A stretch of 11,191 nt of DNA from a virus. Location of the stretch: the UHGV virus genome UHGV-1786984. One strand, 5' to 3'. Each line of letters begins with the position of its first letter. The stretch's first letter is position 1. This document shows, in pieces, positions 1 through 11,191 of the stretch. Under the pieces are notes generated by a model. It searched no databases and was not told the origin of the DNA. It worked only from the letters and a program-made list of their open reading frames with translations. A program made the translations under genes and the position numbers.

Positions 1-140
1 TGCGTAACGAAAGCCCCAGGGCGATTGACTTCACCATCACCCACGGTAAGGGGCGTAAGGGAATCATTATCCGCACCAAAAAACAGAGTCCGTTAAAGAA
101 GGCTCTGACCTTTCTGAAAAGCCGGAGGGTATGGAAATGA
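1..140 (+). CDS. 3' end of an upstream phage early gene (partial; C-terminal fragment only, product unknown)
   Basis: Frame starting at nt 3 is open from the window edge to TGA at 138-140 (..RAIDFTITHGKGRKGIIIRTKKQSPLKKALTFLKSRRVWK*). Its stop overlaps the ATG at 137-139 (ATGA), suggesting translational coupling to the next gene. Not in the ORF track because the start lies outside the window. Confidence 0.3.
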   Translation, partial: RNESPRAIDFTITHGKGRKGIIIRTKKQSPLKKALTFLKSRRVWK

Positions 141-386
141 CAGTGATGACGCTCAATCTCGTTGAAAAACAGCCAGCAGCTATGCGCCGGATAATTGGTA
201 AGCATCTGGCCGTCCCTCGCTGGCAGGAGACATGCGATTATTATAATCAGATGATGGAAGGAAATGACAGTGATGACGCTCAATCTCGTCGAAAAACAGC
301 CAGCAGCTATGCGCCGGATAATTGGCAAGCATCTTGCCGTCCCTCGCTGGCAGGAGACATGTGATTATTATAATCAGATGATGGAG
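133..386. repeat. Tandem direct duplication, period ~127 bp, two copies (about 133-259 and 260-386), 4 mismatches between copies
   Basis: Read directly: the string gaaatgacagtgatgacgctcaatctcgt...ttataatcagatgatgga occurs twice head-to-tail. Copies differ at 4 positions (gtt/gtc, ggt/ggc, ctg/ctt, tgcgat/tgtgat). The period is not a multiple of 3. Confidence 0.9.
137..364 (+). pseudogene. Duplicated 5' fragment of gene B: first ~41 codons of B, then out of frame to a stop at 362-364
   Basis: ATG at 137 (and in-frame ATG at 131) with SD-like GGAGGG at 124-129. The N-terminus MTVMTLNLVEKQPAAMRRIIGKHLAVPRWQETCDYYNQMM matches the downstream full-length ORF, then diverges (EGNDSDDAQSRR...) because the 127-bp repeat shifts the frame by +1. 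Confidence 0.4.
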
Positions 387-764
387 CGCGAACGGCTAAC
401 GGTTTGCTTTCATGCGCAGTTAAAACAACGTCACGCAACGATGCGTTTTGAAGAAATGAACGACGTCGAACGTGAACGGCTGGTTTGTGCAATTGATGAA
501 TTGCGTGGGGCATTCTCAAAACGCCGTCAGGTTGGCGCAAGTGAGTATGCATATATTAGTTTTTTAACAGTCAGTCAGCGTCGTACTTTATTTATGCATG
601 CCGGATTGACTGAAAAAGAATTCAACCAGCCATACTGGCGAATTAATGAAGAATTATGTTACTGGCGTGATGCTTTATTCCGTGCATTACGTGAATTATT
701 CAGCCTGTTTGAGTATGCACCGACAATTCTGACGTCGGTAAAACCAGAGCAATATCTGCATTAA
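264..764 (+). CDS. B: P2 gpB-like DNA replication protein (helicase-loader-type accessory protein), 166 aa
   Basis: Complete 166-aa ORF, matching the recalled length of P2 B. Position immediately upstream of the small-ORF cluster and gene A fits P2 early operon order. Sequence identity to P2 B is from memory, not computed. Confidence 0.7.
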   Translation: MTVMTLNLVEKQPAAMRRIIGKHLAVPRWQETCDYYNQMMERERLTVCFHAQLKQRHATMRFEEMNDVERERLVCAIDELRGAFSKRRQVGASEYAYISFLTVSQRRTLFMHAGLTEKEFNQPYWRINEELCYWRDALFRALRELFSLFEYAPTILTSVKPEQYLH

Positions 765-1578: not shown

Positions 1579-1850
1579 GTATTCGTATTGAAATTGGCGA
1601 ACGTTATGTCGTTACCAGTGACAGCTTTCAGTTTATTCTCCACGAGAAAAAGAGAGCGGAAAGCGGTAAAAACGCCGGTCAGGAATGGCTGGCAGTGGTT
1701 GGTTATTACCCGAAATTAAGCCAGCTCGTTTCCGGCCTGATGCATCACGATATTCTGACCGGAAGCGCAAAATCTTTTGCTGATTTAAACGCGCAGGTTG
1801 AGCAACTCAGCAAGCGTTGTTCAGAGGCTTTTGGCTCACATGGACGTTAA
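1575..1850 (+). CDS. Small early-operon hypothetical protein (P2 orf83-like by position), 91 aa
   Basis: ATG at 1575 with GGAGA upstream. Ends TAA 1848-1850, overlapping the proposed gene A start at 1840. Confidence 0.6.
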   Translation: MSIRIEIGERYVVTSDSFQFILHEKKRAESGKNAGQEWLAVVGYYPKLSQLVSGLMHHDILTGSAKSFADLNAQVEQLSKRCSEAFGSHGR

Positions 1851-4122
1851 AGCCTCCGGGCGTTTTGTCCCTCCGTCAGCATTTGCCGCAGGCACCGGTA
1901 AGACGTTTACCGGTGCTTATGCATGGAACGCGCCACGCGAGGCCGTCGGGCGCGAAAGACCCCTTACACGTGACGAGATGCGTCAGGTGCAAGGTGTTTT
2001 ATCCACGATTAATCGCCTGCCTTACTTTTTGCGCTCGCTGTTTACTTCACGCTATGACTACATCCGGCGCAATAAAAGCCCGGTGCACGGGTTTTATTTC
2101 CTCACATCCACTTTTCAGCGTCGTTTATGGCCGCGCATTGAGCGCGTGAATCAGCGCCATGAAATGAACACCGACGCGTCGTTGCTGTTTCTGGCAGAGC
2201 GTGACCATTATGCGCGTCTGCCGGGGATGAATGATAAGGAGCTGAAAAAGTTTGCCGCCCGTATCTCATCGCAGCTTTTCATGATGTATGAGGAACTCTG
2301 CGATGCATGGGTTGATGCGCATGGTGAAAAAGAATCGCTGTTTACGGATGAGGCGCAGGCTCACCTGTATGGTCATGTTGCTGGCGCTGCACGTGCTTTC
2401 AATATTTCCCCGCTTTACTGGAAAAAATACCGTAAAGGACAGATGACCACGAGGCAGGCATATTCTGCCATTGCCCGCCTGTTTAACGATGAGTGGTGGA
2501 CTCATCAGCTTAAAGGTCAGCGTATGCGCTGGCATGAAGCGTTACTGATTGCTGTCGGGGAGGTCAATAAAGACCGTTCTCCTTATGCCAGTAAACATGC
2601 CATTCGTGATGTGCGTGCGCGCCGCCAGGCAAATCTGGAATTTCTTAAATCGTGTGACCTTGAAAACAGGGAAACCGGCGAGCGCATCGACCTTATCAGT
2701 AAGGTGATGGGCAGTATTTCTAATCCAGAAATTCGCCGGATGGAGCTGATGAACACCATTGCCGGTATTGAGCGTTACGCCGCCGCAGAGGGTGATTTGG
2801 GGATGTTTATCACGCTGACCGCGCCGTCAAAGTATCACCCGACACGTCAGGTCGGAAAAGGCGAAAGTAAAACCGTTCAGCTTAATCACGGCTGGAACGA
2901 TGAGGCATTTAATCCAAAGGATGCGCAGCGTTATCTCTGCCGTATCTGGAGTCTGATGCGCACGGCATTCAAGGATAATGATTTACAGGTCTACGGTTTG
3001 CGTGTCGTCGAGCCACACCACGACGGAACGCCGCACTGGCATATGATGCTTTTTTGTAATCCACGCCAGCGTAATCAGATTATCGAAATCATGCGTCGCT
3101 ATGCGCTCAAAGAGGATGGCGACGAAAGAGGAGCCGCGCGAAACCGTTTTCAGGAAAAACACCTTAACCGGGGCGGTGCTGCGGGGTATATCGCGAAATA
3201 CATCTCAAAAAATATCGACGGCTATGCACTGGATGGGCAGCTCGATAACGATACCGGCAGACCGCTGAAAGATACTGCCGCGGCTGTTACCGCATGGGCG
3301 TCAACGTGGCGCATTCCGCAATTTAAAACGGTTGGCCTGCCGACAATGGGGGCTTACCGTGAACTACGCAAATTGCCTCGCGGCGTCAGCATTGCTGATG
3401 AGTTTGACGAGCGCGTCGAGGCTGCACGCGCCGCCGCAGACAGTGGTGATTTTGCGCTGTATATCAGCGCGCAGGGTGGGGCAAATGTCCCGCGCGATTG
3501 CCAGACTGTCAGGGTTGCCCGTAGCCCGTCGGATGACGTTAACGAGTACGAGGAAGAAGTCGAGAGAGTGGTCGGCATTTACGCGCCGCATCTCGGCGCG
3601 CGTCATATTCATATCACCAGAACGACGGACTGGCGCATTGTTCCGAAAGTGCCGGTCGTTGAGCCTTTGACTTTAAAAAGCGGCATCGCCGCGCCTCGGA
3701 GTCCTGTCAATAACTGTGGAAAGCTCACCAGTGGTGATACTTCGTTACCGGCTCCCACACCTTCTGAACACGCCGCAGCAGTGCTTAATCTGGTTGATGA
3801 CGGTGTTATCGAATGGAATGACCCGGAGGTCGTGAGGGCGCTCAGAGGTGCATTAAAACACGGTCGGAGAACGCCAAATCGTCAGCAAAGAAACGGAAGC
3901 TCGTTAAAACCACATGAAATTGCACCATCGGCCAGACTGGCCCGGTCGGAACGAATGCAAATTACCCGTATCCGCGTTGACCTTGCTCAGAACGGTATCA
4001 GGCCGCAGCGATGGGAGCTTGAGGCGCTGGCGCGTGGTGCGACCGTAGATTACAACGGGAAAAAATTTACGTATCCGGTCGCTGATGAGTGGAGTTGGTT
4101 TTATTGTTATTCAGAGCAATAA
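1840..4122 (+). CDS. A: Rolling-circle replication initiator endonuclease, P2 gpA family (HUH superfamily), ~760 aa
   Basis: Long ORF. HUH-type metal-binding motif in PHWHMMLF and a paired-tyrosine catalytic motif in YIAKYISKNIDGY (phiX174 gpA / P2 gpA class). First ATG is at 1840 (the track ORF starts at an upstream TTG at 1798); from 1840 the length is close to the recalled P2 A length. Ends TAA 4120-4122. Confidence 0.9.
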   Translation: MDVKASGRFVPPSAFAAGTGKTFTGAYAWNAPREAVGRERPLTRDEMRQVQGVLSTINRLPYFLRSLFTSRYDYIRRNKSPVHGFYFLTSTFQRRLWPRIERVNQRHEMNTDASLLFLAERDHYARLPGMNDKELKKFAARISSQLFMMYEELCDAWVDAHGEKESLFTDEAQAHLYGHVAGAARAFNISPLYWKKYRKGQMTTRQAYSAIARLFNDEWWTHQLKGQRMRWHEALLIAVGEVNKDRSPYASKHAIRDVRARRQANLEFLKSCDLENRETGERIDLISKVMGSISNPEIRRMELMNTIAGIERYAAAEGDLGMFITLTAPSKYHPTRQVGKGESKTVQLNHGWNDEAFNPKDAQRYLCRIWSLMRTAFKDNDLQVYGLRVVEPHHDGTPHWHMMLFCNPRQRNQIIEIMRRYALKEDGDERGAARNRFQEKHLNRGGAAGYIAKYISKNIDGYALDGQLDNDTGRPLKDTAAAVTAWASTWRIPQFKTVGLPTMGAYRELRKLPRGVSIADEFDERVEAARAAADSGDFALYISAQGGANVPRDCQTVRVARSPSDDVNEYEEEVERVVGIYAPHLGARHIHITRTTDWRIVPKVPVVEPLTLKSGIAAPRSPVNNCGKLTSGDTSLPAPTPSEHAAAVLNLVDDGVIEWNDPEVVRALRGALKHGRRTPNRQQRNGSSLKPHEIAPSARLARSERMQITRIRVDLAQNGIRPQRWELEALARGATVDYNGKKFTYPVADEWSWFYCYSEQ

Positions 4123-4238: not shown

Positions 4239-5123
4239 ATGAATGATATCTTTGTTCTTACAAGGGAAGAGCTTGAAACACTAGATTATAGTGTTTTTAT
4301 GCATATACCAGTTACATTTCATGCACATAAAATAAAAAAATATCTGGATGGGATTGCTGAATCATCAGGAAACCCCAAAGAGAAAAAATTAGCATCTCTT
4401 TTTGGTATGCTATATAGTTTCAATTTGCAAGTTGTTAACAACACTCCATCATTTGAACCCCAAATGATTTGGGGTAATAAAAGATCAATATTGTCTGAAG
4501 ATTTTGATGAGCAGGTGAATGACTGTCTTTTATATGTTTCTCAAAAAATAACCAATCCATTTTTGTTATCAAGAATATATGATGTTGTTTGGTGTAATAA
4601 CCGGAAAAACAAAGACGTGGCAATTAAAGCAATTGATTCCTATGCTGAAATGCTAAATATAGCAATTGAAAAACTAATAATAAAAAACGAAAGCATGGAT
4701 GAAAGTGATTTAAATTGCTTTATTTTTGCTCGTGATTATATTGCTAGGGCTTTGCACATTAATAAAATGGTCTACCCTAGAAAATCAGAAGGAAACATGG
4801 CGATTAAAAATGCCATTCATTCTCTTTATAGTATTCAAAATGAAAGATTAATCTTTGAAGGTTTCAATAATTTGACTTGGTTTATGGTGCGTGATTTTGA
4901 TGGGTATAATCTGCAGTATGCGGAAAATGCTGAGAAGATGGCTGAGCAGCATAAAGATAAAAAATATTATGATGCTGTAAAATCACTTTATATGACAAGT
5001 GCAGTTATTTATGAAAAAATGGTGAGTATGAACGTGCCAAGAGATGTAAACTGGCATCTGCAAATATTACTATTAAAGTTGCAACAGATCGACCTGATAA
5101 TATGGGTAAGATCTCTTGGTTAA
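4239..5123 (+). CDS. Cargo gene 1: hypothetical protein of unknown function, 294 aa from first ATG; AT-rich, foreign composition
   Basis: First ATG at 4239 with AAGGTG 6 nt upstream; the track ORF starts at an in-frame TTG at 4137. Codon usage is A/T-rich, unlike flanking phage genes. No motif recognised by eye. Overlaps the next ORF by 22 nt. Confidence 0.7.
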   Translation: MNDIFVLTREELETLDYSVFMHIPVTFHAHKIKKYLDGIAESSGNPKEKKLASLFGMLYSFNLQVVNNTPSFEPQMIWGNKRSILSEDFDEQVNDCLLYVSQKITNPFLLSRIYDVVWCNNRKNKDVAIKAIDSYAEMLNIAIEKLIIKNESMDESDLNCFIFARDYIARALHINKMVYPRKSEGNMAIKNAIHSLYSIQNERLIFEGFNNLTWFMVRDFDGYNLQYAENAEKMAEQHKDKKYYDAVKSLYMTSAVIYEKMVSMNVPRDVNWHLQILLLKLQQIDLIIWVRSLG

Positions 5124-6070
5124 GAACAGCTATCTCTGAATTAAGACAGTATGGTGGTGATAGCCAACAGATAGAAGATTTAAAGGAACAACTTGCTAAT
5201 TTGAGAGAAGAAGTAAGGAGTGAATATGTCACTTTAAGCCATTCTATTGATATTAGTGACTTGGTTGCTGAAAGTGAAAAAAAACTGACGGGGCGTTCTT
5301 TGCCCGATATATTCAAAGTTTTAATGCGTGAAACACCGATTGAAAATATTGAAAGCATGAGGGAGCAAGTTTTAAGATTATCAGAAAAAAGTTTATTCTC
5401 TAGTTTTGTTGGAACAGAAATTAATGATGAGAGTGGGCGTAAGGTATATACAATCCCGCCGTTGAATAATAAAAAAGATATGAGTGATGATGTTGTTATT
5501 GATCAATATCTAAGAAATTTCGAGATTACTCATAAGATTTTTGTAAACGGTGTCTTTGAACCTGCTCGCTATGTACTTTCTCAAGAACATGGCTTGACGT
5601 TGTCAACATTCGTTAAATTAGTTACAACTAGTCCAATTGTCAAGCCGGAGTTTAGGGAGATTTTTAATTTGGGCTTTTACAAATTATGGCAGGGAGATTA
5701 CATCAGTGCAGCTTATCTTTTAATACCACAAATGGAAGGTATGGTTCGTTATTATTATGAGCTTAGTGGAAAGGATGCTACTAGATATTTGGATAAGGGA
5801 TTAGAGGAGTCAACAAGTATTTCTCAGCTTCTAGATAAATGCAGAGATGATTTGGAAAGTATCTTTTCTAAGAATCTTGTTTTAACTATCGATGTTCTTT
5901 TTAATAGAAAGAGTGGGGCAACCTTAAGACATAAATTAGCACATGGTAATTTATATACTAATGCTTGTTACGATGAAACAACGACATATGCATGCATCCT
6001 GATTTTCTTTCTGTGTGCTTATCCTCTCCTACCATATTTTGATACTGTATTTGAACAGGGCTCTGTTTGA
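5102..6070 (+). CDS. Cargo gene 2: hypothetical protein with C-terminal HEPN-like R-x4-H motif (candidate RNase/abortive-infection effector), 322 aa
   Basis: ORF from ATG 5102, in the -1 frame relative to cargo gene 1, no obvious SD. C-terminal ..NRKSGATLRHKLAHGNLY.. has Arg (5927-5929) and His (5942-5944) spaced R-x4-H as in HEPN (Abi_2/AbiD/AbiF-like) domains. Same AT-rich composition. May be a separate gene or the 3' part of a frameshifted single gene. Confidence 0.65.
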   Translation: MGKISWLRTAISELRQYGGDSQQIEDLKEQLANLREEVRSEYVTLSHSIDISDLVAESEKKLTGRSLPDIFKVLMRETPIENIESMREQVLRLSEKSLFSSFVGTEINDESGRKVYTIPPLNNKKDMSDDVVIDQYLRNFEITHKIFVNGVFEPARYVLSQEHGLTLSTFVKLVTTSPIVKPEFREIFNLGFYKLWQGDYISAAYLLIPQMEGMVRYYYELSGKDATRYLDKGLEESTSISQLLDKCRDDLESIFSKNLVLTIDVLFNRKSGATLRHKLAHGNLYTNACYDETTTYACILIFFLCAYPLLPYFDTVFEQGSV

Positions 6071-6240: not shown

Positions 6241-6391
6241 TGCGCGCTGGCGGTGGTGCTGATTTTATTTTTTCAGCGTCTCAGCGCGTCGTAATGGCGT
6301 TTAGATTGTGCGCCGGGGCGTTGGTGTGTCTGCGGGCTGTTTTGTGCGGTGGTGAGCGTGTGAGGGCGTGATGACGGGATGTAAAAAAGCC

Positions 6392-6414
6392 TAAAAAAGC
6401 CGCCCGCAGGCGGC
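6392..6414 (-). terminator. Rho-independent terminator of the P-Q late operon
   Basis: On the - strand, 5 nt after the Q stop: GC-rich hairpin GCCGCC-TGCG-GGCGGC (plus 6399-6414) followed by a U-run (plus-strand A-run 6393-6398). Confidence 0.55.
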
Positions 6415-10207: not shown

Positions 10208-11191
10208 ATGCGCCAGGAAACCCGCTTTAAATTTAATGCCTACCTGTCCCGTGTTGCCGAGCTGAACGGCATCGACGCCGGTGATGTGTCGAAAAAATTC
10301 ACCGTTGAACCGTCGGTCACCCAGACCCTGATGAACACCATGCAGGAGTCCTCTGACTTTCTGACCCGCATCAACATTGTGCCGGTCAGCGAAATGAAAG
10401 GGGAAAAAATTGGTATCGGTGTCACCGGCTCCATCGCCAGCACCACCGACACCGCCGGTGGCACCGAGCGTCAGCCGAAGGACTTCTCGAAGCTGGCGTC
10501 CAGTAAGTACGAATGCGACCAGATTAACTTCGATTTTTATATCCGCTACAAAACGCTTGACCTGTGGGCGCGTTATCAGGATTTCGAATGCGACCAGATT
10601 AACTTCGATTTTTATATCCGCTACAAAACGCTGGACCTGTGGGCGCGTTATCAGGATTTCCAGCTCCGTGTCCGTAACGCCATTATCAAACGCCAGTCCC
10701 TTGATTTAATCATGGCCGGTTTTAACGGCGTGAAGCGTGCCGAAACCTCTGACCGCAGCAGCAATCCGATGCTGCAGGATGTGGCGGTCGGCTGGCTGCA
10801 GAAATACCGCAATGAAGCCCCGGCGCGCGTGATGAGCAAGGTCACTGACGAGGAAGGCCGCACCACCTCTGAGGTTATCCGCGTGGGTAAGGGCGGTGAT
10901 TATGCCAGCCTTGATGCACTGGTGATGGATGCGACCAACAACCTGATTGAACCGTGGTATCAGGAAGACCCTGACCTTGTGGTGATTGTGGGGCGTCAGT
11001 TACTGGCGGACAAGTATTTCCCCATCGTCAACAAGGAGCAGGACAACAGCGAGATGCTGGCCGCTGACGTCATCATCAGCCAGAAACGCATCGGCAACCT
11101 GCCAGCGGTACGCGTCCCGTACTTCCCGGCGGATGCGATGCTCATCACGAAGCTGGAAAACCTGTCCATCTACTACATGGATGACAGCCAT
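10208..11191 (+). CDS. N: Major capsid protein, P2 gpN family; 5' partial (328 codons, runs off the window end)
   Basis: ATG 10208 with CAGGA upstream; frame open to the last base of the window (MRQETRFKFNAYLSRVAELNG...YYMDDSH). Absent from the ORF track because no stop lies in the window. Follows O as in P2. Confidence 0.85.
   Translation, partial: MRQETRFKFNAYLSRVAELNGIDAGDVSKKFTVEPSVTQTLMNTMQESSDFLTRINIVPVSEMKGEKIGIGVTGSIASTTDTAGGTERQPKDFSKLASSKYECDQINFDFYIRYKTLDLWARYQDFECDQINFDFYIRYKTLDLWARYQDFQLRVRNAIIKRQSLDLIMAGFNGVKRAETSDRSSNPMLQDVAVGWLQKYRNEAPARVMSKVTDEEGRTTSEVIRVGKGGDYASLDALVMDATNNLIEPWYQEDPDLVVIVGRQLLADKYFPIVNKEQDNSEMLAADVIISQKRIGNLPAVRVPYFPADAMLITKLENLSIYYMDDSH
10511..10660 (+). 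repeat. In-frame 75-bp tandem duplication inside gene N (2 copies, 1 synonymous mismatch), duplicating ECDQINFDFYIRYKTLDLWARYQDF
   Basis: Read directly: gaatgcgaccagattaacttcgatttttatatccgctacaaaacgct[t/g]gacctgtgggcgcgttatcaggatttc occurs twice head-to-tail (10511-10585, 10586-10660). 75 = 25 codons, in frame with N. Confidence 0.9.

Follow-up and report, generated by a model that had tools for sequence, protein, structure and literature searches.

The doubled start of replication gene B in a P2-like prophage sequence is probably a technical chimera of two co-occurring templates

Why should the start of a phage replication gene stand twice, in tandem, in a single prophage sequence? The 11,191-nt stretch of DNA analyzed here (the window) opens with such an arrangement, in which a frameshifted fragment of gene B precedes an intact B. 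A preliminary description of the sequence read the repeat either as an older duplication whose copies had diverged or as a recombination junction between related phages, and proposed that it lowers or uncouples B expression. Our comparison of the window with natural P2-like prophages assigns the two copies to different phage types and points instead to a join that is most likely not a biological feature.

Gene B and the anatomy of its doubled start

The window corresponds to the early-to-head part of a P2-like (Peduovirus) prophage. It runs from the end of orf78 through B, orf80-83, A (1840-4122), a cargo gene, Q and P (both on the minus strand) and O to the start of N, and this ORF map agrees with the annotations of S88, Wphi and fiAA91-ss and with the early-operon synteny cox, orf78, B, orf80-83, A. 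In genes, order and sequence (97-99% DNA identity), the window resembles P2, Wphi, L-413C, fiAA91-ss and E. coli prophages, and its B-region DNA is 97-98% identical to the annotated gpB of P2-like phages. The 166-aa B protein (264-764, plus strand) is an exact match to a widespread protein with the Pfam assignment PF26815 (Phage_RepB), indexed in 1,232 blocks; all four places shown for this exact protein have a single-copy orf78-B-orf80 context. A Pfam profile search of B returned no match from a profile set that apparently lacks the newer PF26815 model. The reading frames of A, B, Q and P are all intact in the window.

The repeated unit at the start of B is 127 nt long and occurs in two tandem copies, 133-259 and 260-386 (plus strand), as had been described. 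It was recovered both by a repeat finder (133-258 against 260-385, 97% identity, spacing 127) and by Tandem Repeats Finder (133-385, period 127, 2.0 copies, 96% matches, score 478), the latter with a score far above chance for an 11-kb window. Under exact 127-nt registration the copies differ at five sites rather than the four previously counted, namely, 163 (T/C), 199 (T/C), 208 (G/T), 235 (C/T) and the additional pair 259 A/386 G. All five are synonymous third-codon positions, an outcome with a chance probability of (1/3)^5, or ~0.004. Inspection of the sequence places a blunt head-to-tail junction at 259/260, where ...ATGATGGAA meets GGAAATGACAG..., and GGAA is retained on either side of it, closing copy 1 and opening copy 2, so that the join made no use of microhomology.

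How far the repeat extends upstream determines which start signals accompany each copy. The unit reaches just 4 nt before the ATG, which leaves the native Shine-Dalgarno (SD) sequence of B, GGAGGG (124-129, plus strand; 7 nt before ATG 137; SD:anti-SD duplex of -10.0 kcal/mol), outside the repeat. The claim that the SD-proximal start had been doubled thus holds for the first ~41 codons of B, which do occur twice, but not for the SD. Translation of orf78, the small gene upstream of B, places its 3' end at 3-140 (plus strand), and its TGA stop (138-140) overlaps the native B start as ATGA (137-140); the reported coupling of ATG 137 to the upstream stop is therefore real at the sequence level. 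The S88 annotation contains the same orf78/B pair (CDS 2998-3168 and 3165-3665), with a 4-nt overlap. GGAGGG and the ATGA overlap likewise mark the native orf78-B junction of P2-like phages, and in the window they belong to the frameshifted first copy alone, not to intact B.

The coordinates and translations given earlier for the two reading frames hold. The first copy opens a 75-aa ORF (137-364, plus strand; stop TGA at 362-364) that specifies B residues 1-41 followed by 34 out-of-frame residues and that keeps the native SD and orf78 coupling. Its product, entered as either 75 aa or 77 aa, is not on record in an exact-protein look-up. Intact B begins at ATG 264, inside this ORF and in another frame, 98 nt before the ORF stops. 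The sequence preceding ATG 264, GGAAGGAA, is a weak and mis-spaced SD-like run (duplex of -5.7 kcal/mol, spacing 0-1 nt). Whereas the P2-like relatives examined have one B start each, the window thus has two, and the intact one lacks both the native SD and the coupling.

The two copies are alleles of two phage types

Comparison with natural prophages establishes a two-allele origin of the B-start copies. Copy 2, which starts the intact gene, is the allele of the yegR-site prophage of E. coli S88 (type S), to which window positions 260-500 are identical. Copy 1 is the allele of a second, cpxP-site prophage (type X), represented by prophage 2 of E. coli N53 and by four other genomes (L004-L007). 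Window positions 1-259 differ from these X-type sequences at base 98 only, and copy 1 together with its upstream flank carries the X allele at 131, 163, 199, 208, 235 and 259. Set against S88, positions 1-258 differ at 131, 163, 199, 208 and 235, and base 259 is A, where type S has G. A natural haplotype with the left side of the window, G98 included, is present among 134 natural loci. In these loci, the sites that distinguish the copies are common, freely reassorting polymorphisms, with 36 haplotypes at nine sites. Both parental types are found in one genome, that of E. coli N53.

Since all five differences are synonymous natural alleles and each copy matches a different phage type, the differences predate the join. 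They did not accumulate in place after an older duplication, as had been supposed, but existed already in the population. Nor do mismatches between the copies argue against an assembly artefact, the use to which they had been put, because allelic mismatches are the product of joining two co-occurring templates and the rest of the window carries the signature of a mixture. The suggested recombination junction between related phages fares better: the copies are indeed alleles of two P2-like phage types, although a technical join is favoured.

Across the collections searched, the two-copy state is private to the window. Of 136 panel loci, 135 contain the B-start motif a single time and one lacks it; the window alone has it twice. 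A single copy is therefore the norm at every panel locus that carries the B start (135/135), and no carrier was found for the contrary idea, also raised beforehand, that related phages conserve the two-copy arrangement. Among phage records, the 40 listed of 75 matches are all single-copy (773 of 900 query bases), as are the best 60 of 1,673 matches among E. coli records (274 of 401 query bases). Neither the 5,426 complete E. coli genomes nor the 50,697 phage records contained a match to a 50-mer centred on 259/260, within which no 28-base megablast seed is possible without crossing the join. Junction patterns, whether exact or degenerate at one site, were likewise absent from IMG/VR, from one genome per GTDB species and from JGI metagenomes; as a positive control, the native right-hand boundary was found in at least 120 IMG/VR contigs. 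A leader or upstream ORF of B conserved in relatives thus has no carriers in the collections searched. In the literature searched, nothing bore directly on P2 tandem duplications or on B.

Parentage of the window and its private lesions

Two-parent composition extends well beyond gene B. Counted with close kin of each type over alignable parts of ~8.7 kb, 225 sites separate S from X, and the window is S-type at 120 of them, X-type at 105 and neither at 0. Among the 1,457 panel-polymorphic sites where S equals X, it departs from the shared base at 0. Nearly all bases at which the window differs from S88 carry the X allele, and in the cargo region, which is absent from X, the difference from S88 amounts to one SNP and a 1-nt deletion at 5014. 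Every allele at the separating sites can thus be traced to one of two parents, which distinguishes the window from the controls: the best donor pair leaves 4-9 sites unexplained in the window, where single parents each differ at ~118-143, and 45-123 in natural control prophages without close kin in the panel.

Mosaicism alone was dropped as proof of an artefact, because natural P2-like prophages are fine mosaics too and the controls need 15-66 donor switches; the best-pair, neither-site and runs tests replaced it. The literature documents real recombination among P2 relatives (Nilsson and Haggard-Ljungquist, cited in PMC3448106), and exchange between such close genomes yields mosaics, as seen in the window and the controls alike. 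Natural mosaics, however, involve many donors and private sites and leave the larger unexplained remainder, whereas the window combines a very small remainder with misaligned joins.

The distribution of parental alleles along the window shows linkage over tens of bases and independence beyond. Of 157 pairs of adjacent informative sites with a gap <37 nt, 3 switch parent, compared with 32 of the 67 pairs with a gap >=37 nt. Sites linked at <37 nt form 68 clusters, of which 65 are homogeneous, and their labels fall into 33 runs against the 34.3 expected for coin flips (z = -0.32). SNP clusters in the window therefore assort as if by coin flip, and the choice of parent is independent beyond short range. 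This pattern is expected of short-range merging and not of a few in vivo exchanges; if crossing-over had produced the ~35 alternations in ~8.7 kb, exchanges would have had to occur about once per 145 nt. A threshold model described the switches better than a Poisson crossover model (delta-AIC of 11.3), a comparison that is partly confounded by SNP clustering. Given this confounding and the natural occurrence of mosaics, the case for an artefact rests on the runs test and the absence of sites of neither type. Switches at short gaps (9, 28 and 33 nt) conflict with a strict k-mer limit, unless the references deviate slightly from the true parents.

Private changes in the window comprise one or two SNPs (4494 and possibly 10951) and five structural changes, i.e., the 127-bp duplication, a 75-bp duplication, a 105-bp deletion, a 10-bp duplication and a 1-nt homopolymer deletion. 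Natural mutation does not yield structural changes and substitutions in such a ratio. The 75-nt tandem duplication (10510-10659, plus strand) adds 25 codons in frame to the major capsid gene N, and its copies differ only at a third-codon S/X site, 10558 T (S-type) and 10633 G (X-type). Both longer duplications (127 and 75) thus pair one S copy with one X copy. The N duplication was absent among the 15 listed of 108 matching phage records, in which the 601 query bases correspond to 526. The 105-bp deletion (10134/10135, plus strand) removes 35 codons in frame near the 3' end of the scaffold gene O, which specifies 249 aa in the window versus 284 aa in relatives; it has no flanking direct repeat and does not lie at a parent switch.

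The perfect 10-bp tandem duplication (TAAAAAAGCC) occupies 6382-6401 and adjoins a hairpin downstream of Q. A natural origin for it, suggested by a copying model that derived 6338-6391 from locus L031, turned out to be an alignment effect, and the exact string is absent from the 136 panel loci. The neighbouring GC-rich hairpin, GCCGCCCGCAGGCGGC, looks like the Q terminator on the minus strand. The homopolymer change affects an A6 run at 5014-5019 (plus strand) that is A7 in S88, and with one base fewer the cargo gene falls into two ORFs. The product of this gene (4239-6070, between A and Q), a DUF7380 protein, matches PDC-S39, a candidate defence family of PADLOC, and is intact, at 610 aa, in S88. 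At the same A-Q position, the cargo of the other P2-like prophages examined consists of retron and reverse-transcriptase genes, a methylase-restriction pair or cdt toxin genes.

On inspection, the four multi-base junctions offer usable homology of 0-1 nt at most, which rules out microhomology-mediated slippage for the two longer duplications, the 10-bp duplication and the 105-bp deletion. Junction 30-mers of all four changes are absent from the panel, and a combined 50-mer search for the 75-bp, 105-bp and 10-bp junctions found none in complete E. coli genomes. Exact-protein look-ups had no record of the shortened O (249 or 271 aa) or of the mosaic A (760 aa). In both S88 (L001, 13619-16201) and N53 (L003), the S-type prophage carries an IS21-family ISEc12 in gene N and a frameshifted integrase. 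The ISEc12 target site is uninterrupted at ~10693-10697 of the window, so that either its backbone derives from a relative that predates the insertion, or the sequence of the other prophage bridged the site.

Origin of the join and its consequences for gene B

We regard it as probable that the doubled B start is a technical chimera of two co-occurring P2-like templates. Some technical process would have merged two such templates, ~98% identical, into one sequence, and the 5' end of B from the X allele (cpxP site) would have been joined head-to-tail to the 5' end of the S allele (yegR site). A candidate process is an assembly or consensus step of short range (~30-40 nt) that collapsed the two prophages and abutted overlapping allelic pieces instead of merging them. 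Abutted in this way, allelic versions would give tandem duplications in which an S copy stands beside an X copy. A chimera formed during amplification is an alternative candidate.

Near-identical repeats in assemblies are known to give rise to collapsed-repeat or haplotype-duplication artefacts. At the sequence level, the window is like these in its two parents, absence of private alleles, independent clusters, tandem alleles and homopolymer indel. It differs in its overlaps of 127, 75 and 10 nt, which are not those of one k-mer, and in the few switches under 37 nt. Counting against a chimera, the three repeat lengths fit no one fixed assembler overlap. An untrimmed SPAdes overlap at k = 127 was rejected as the source, because the copies differ from each other and the remaining duplications measure 75 and 10 nt. 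Likewise discarded was the idea that the 75-nt unit is a bubble around one isolated SNP (2k+1 nt, k = 37), the SNP being off centre at position 49 of 75. From the parentage and arrangement of the alleles we infer technical rather than in vivo joining.

The main competitor to a technical chimera is a real hybrid, made in vivo by repeated template switching (copy-choice, break-induced replication or illegitimate exchange) between co-resident prophages. A misaligned switch would then have joined X position 259 to S position 133, and the resulting prophage would be in decay, its B decoupled and weakly translated. Both parents do co-reside in N53, and parent switches fall at the junctions of both longer duplications, as misaligned switching predicts. 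The S88-type prophage is, moreover, already defective in S88 and N53 (integrase frameshift, IS in N), so that further lesions would be tolerated, and the B, A, Q and P frames survive in the window. Nevertheless, we consider such an origin unlikely. The alternations, with clusters >=37 nt apart behaving as coin flips, are far above known in vivo exchange densities. The multi-base junctions are all blunt, and E. coli lacks efficient blunt end-joining. The excess of structural over point changes is unlike the natural spectrum, and no second carrier turned up in any collection searched. N53 itself is informative: S prophages score the same against the window in S88, MS7163, N53 and N62, and the S88 and N53 alignments are identical. 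Although N53 also carries X, its S prophage aligns as that of S88 and has acquired no X patches.

Two further explanations keep the duplication biological and fare worse. An older within-lineage duplication, identical at first, might have had one copy overwritten later through homologous recombination with another P2-like phage. B loci reassort so finely (36 haplotypes at nine sites in 134 loci) that one extra conversion patch would be ordinary. The X tract, however, runs through 259 and the S tract is established by 290, which confines the exchange to 30 nt abutting the junction. The same coincidence recurs at the 75-bp duplication, with a joint chance that we estimate at ~0.03 for one switch per ~270 nt. 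An older duplication should also be shared by relatives, and it was seen in 0 of ~1,900 E. coli places and 0 of 135 panel loci, which makes this history quite improbable. Hardly credible at all is the idea that an evolved device, be it a leader peptide, an upstream ORF or a programmed frameshift, regulates the level of B synthesis. The first ORF does have the native SD and coupling and does overlap the second start, as such a device might. It is, however, conserved in no relative; inspection of ATGATGGAAGGAAATGAC reveals no slippery X XXY YYZ heptamer at the junction; local folds are unremarkable; and the copies are simply two alleles of one coding sequence.

With a technical chimera as the preferred reading, any effect on B expression becomes moot. 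If the junction were real, ribosomes coupled to orf78 would make the 75-aa fragment and read past ATG 264 out of its frame. Initiation of intact B would be left to the poorly placed GGAAGGAA inside a translated region, and B output would probably be lower. The proposal of reduced B expression is reasonable on that condition, since neither the native SD nor the stop-start coupling accompanies the second ATG. P2 B is reported to interact with the DnaB helicase (Odegrip et al. 2000, as cited in PMC11087808), and replication of the P2 type would be predicted to suffer from reduced B. A genuine hybrid prophage of this kind, in which dense template switching set a coupled 75-aa decoy ORF before a poorly initiated B, is in our judgment doubtful. 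It would exemplify a natural, copy-choice-like shuffling of co-resident prophages with built-in down-tuning of a helicase-loading replication gene. Even so, it would be a modest curiosity, a decaying hybrid prophage whose B translation is decoupled by a private lesion and which attests to unusually dense exchange between co-resident prophages.

As it stands, the window is unfit for inferring P2 gene structure, B regulation or scaffold/capsid variants. More generally, mismatches between repeat copies are no bar to an artefact where two near-identical prophages co-occur. A second, minor repeat also touches the B region: a 21-nt direct repeat at 111-131 and 838-858 (TTTCTGAAAAGCCGGAGGGTA and TTTCTGAAAATCAGTGCGGTA, 76% identity) is present in two copies, probably by chance.
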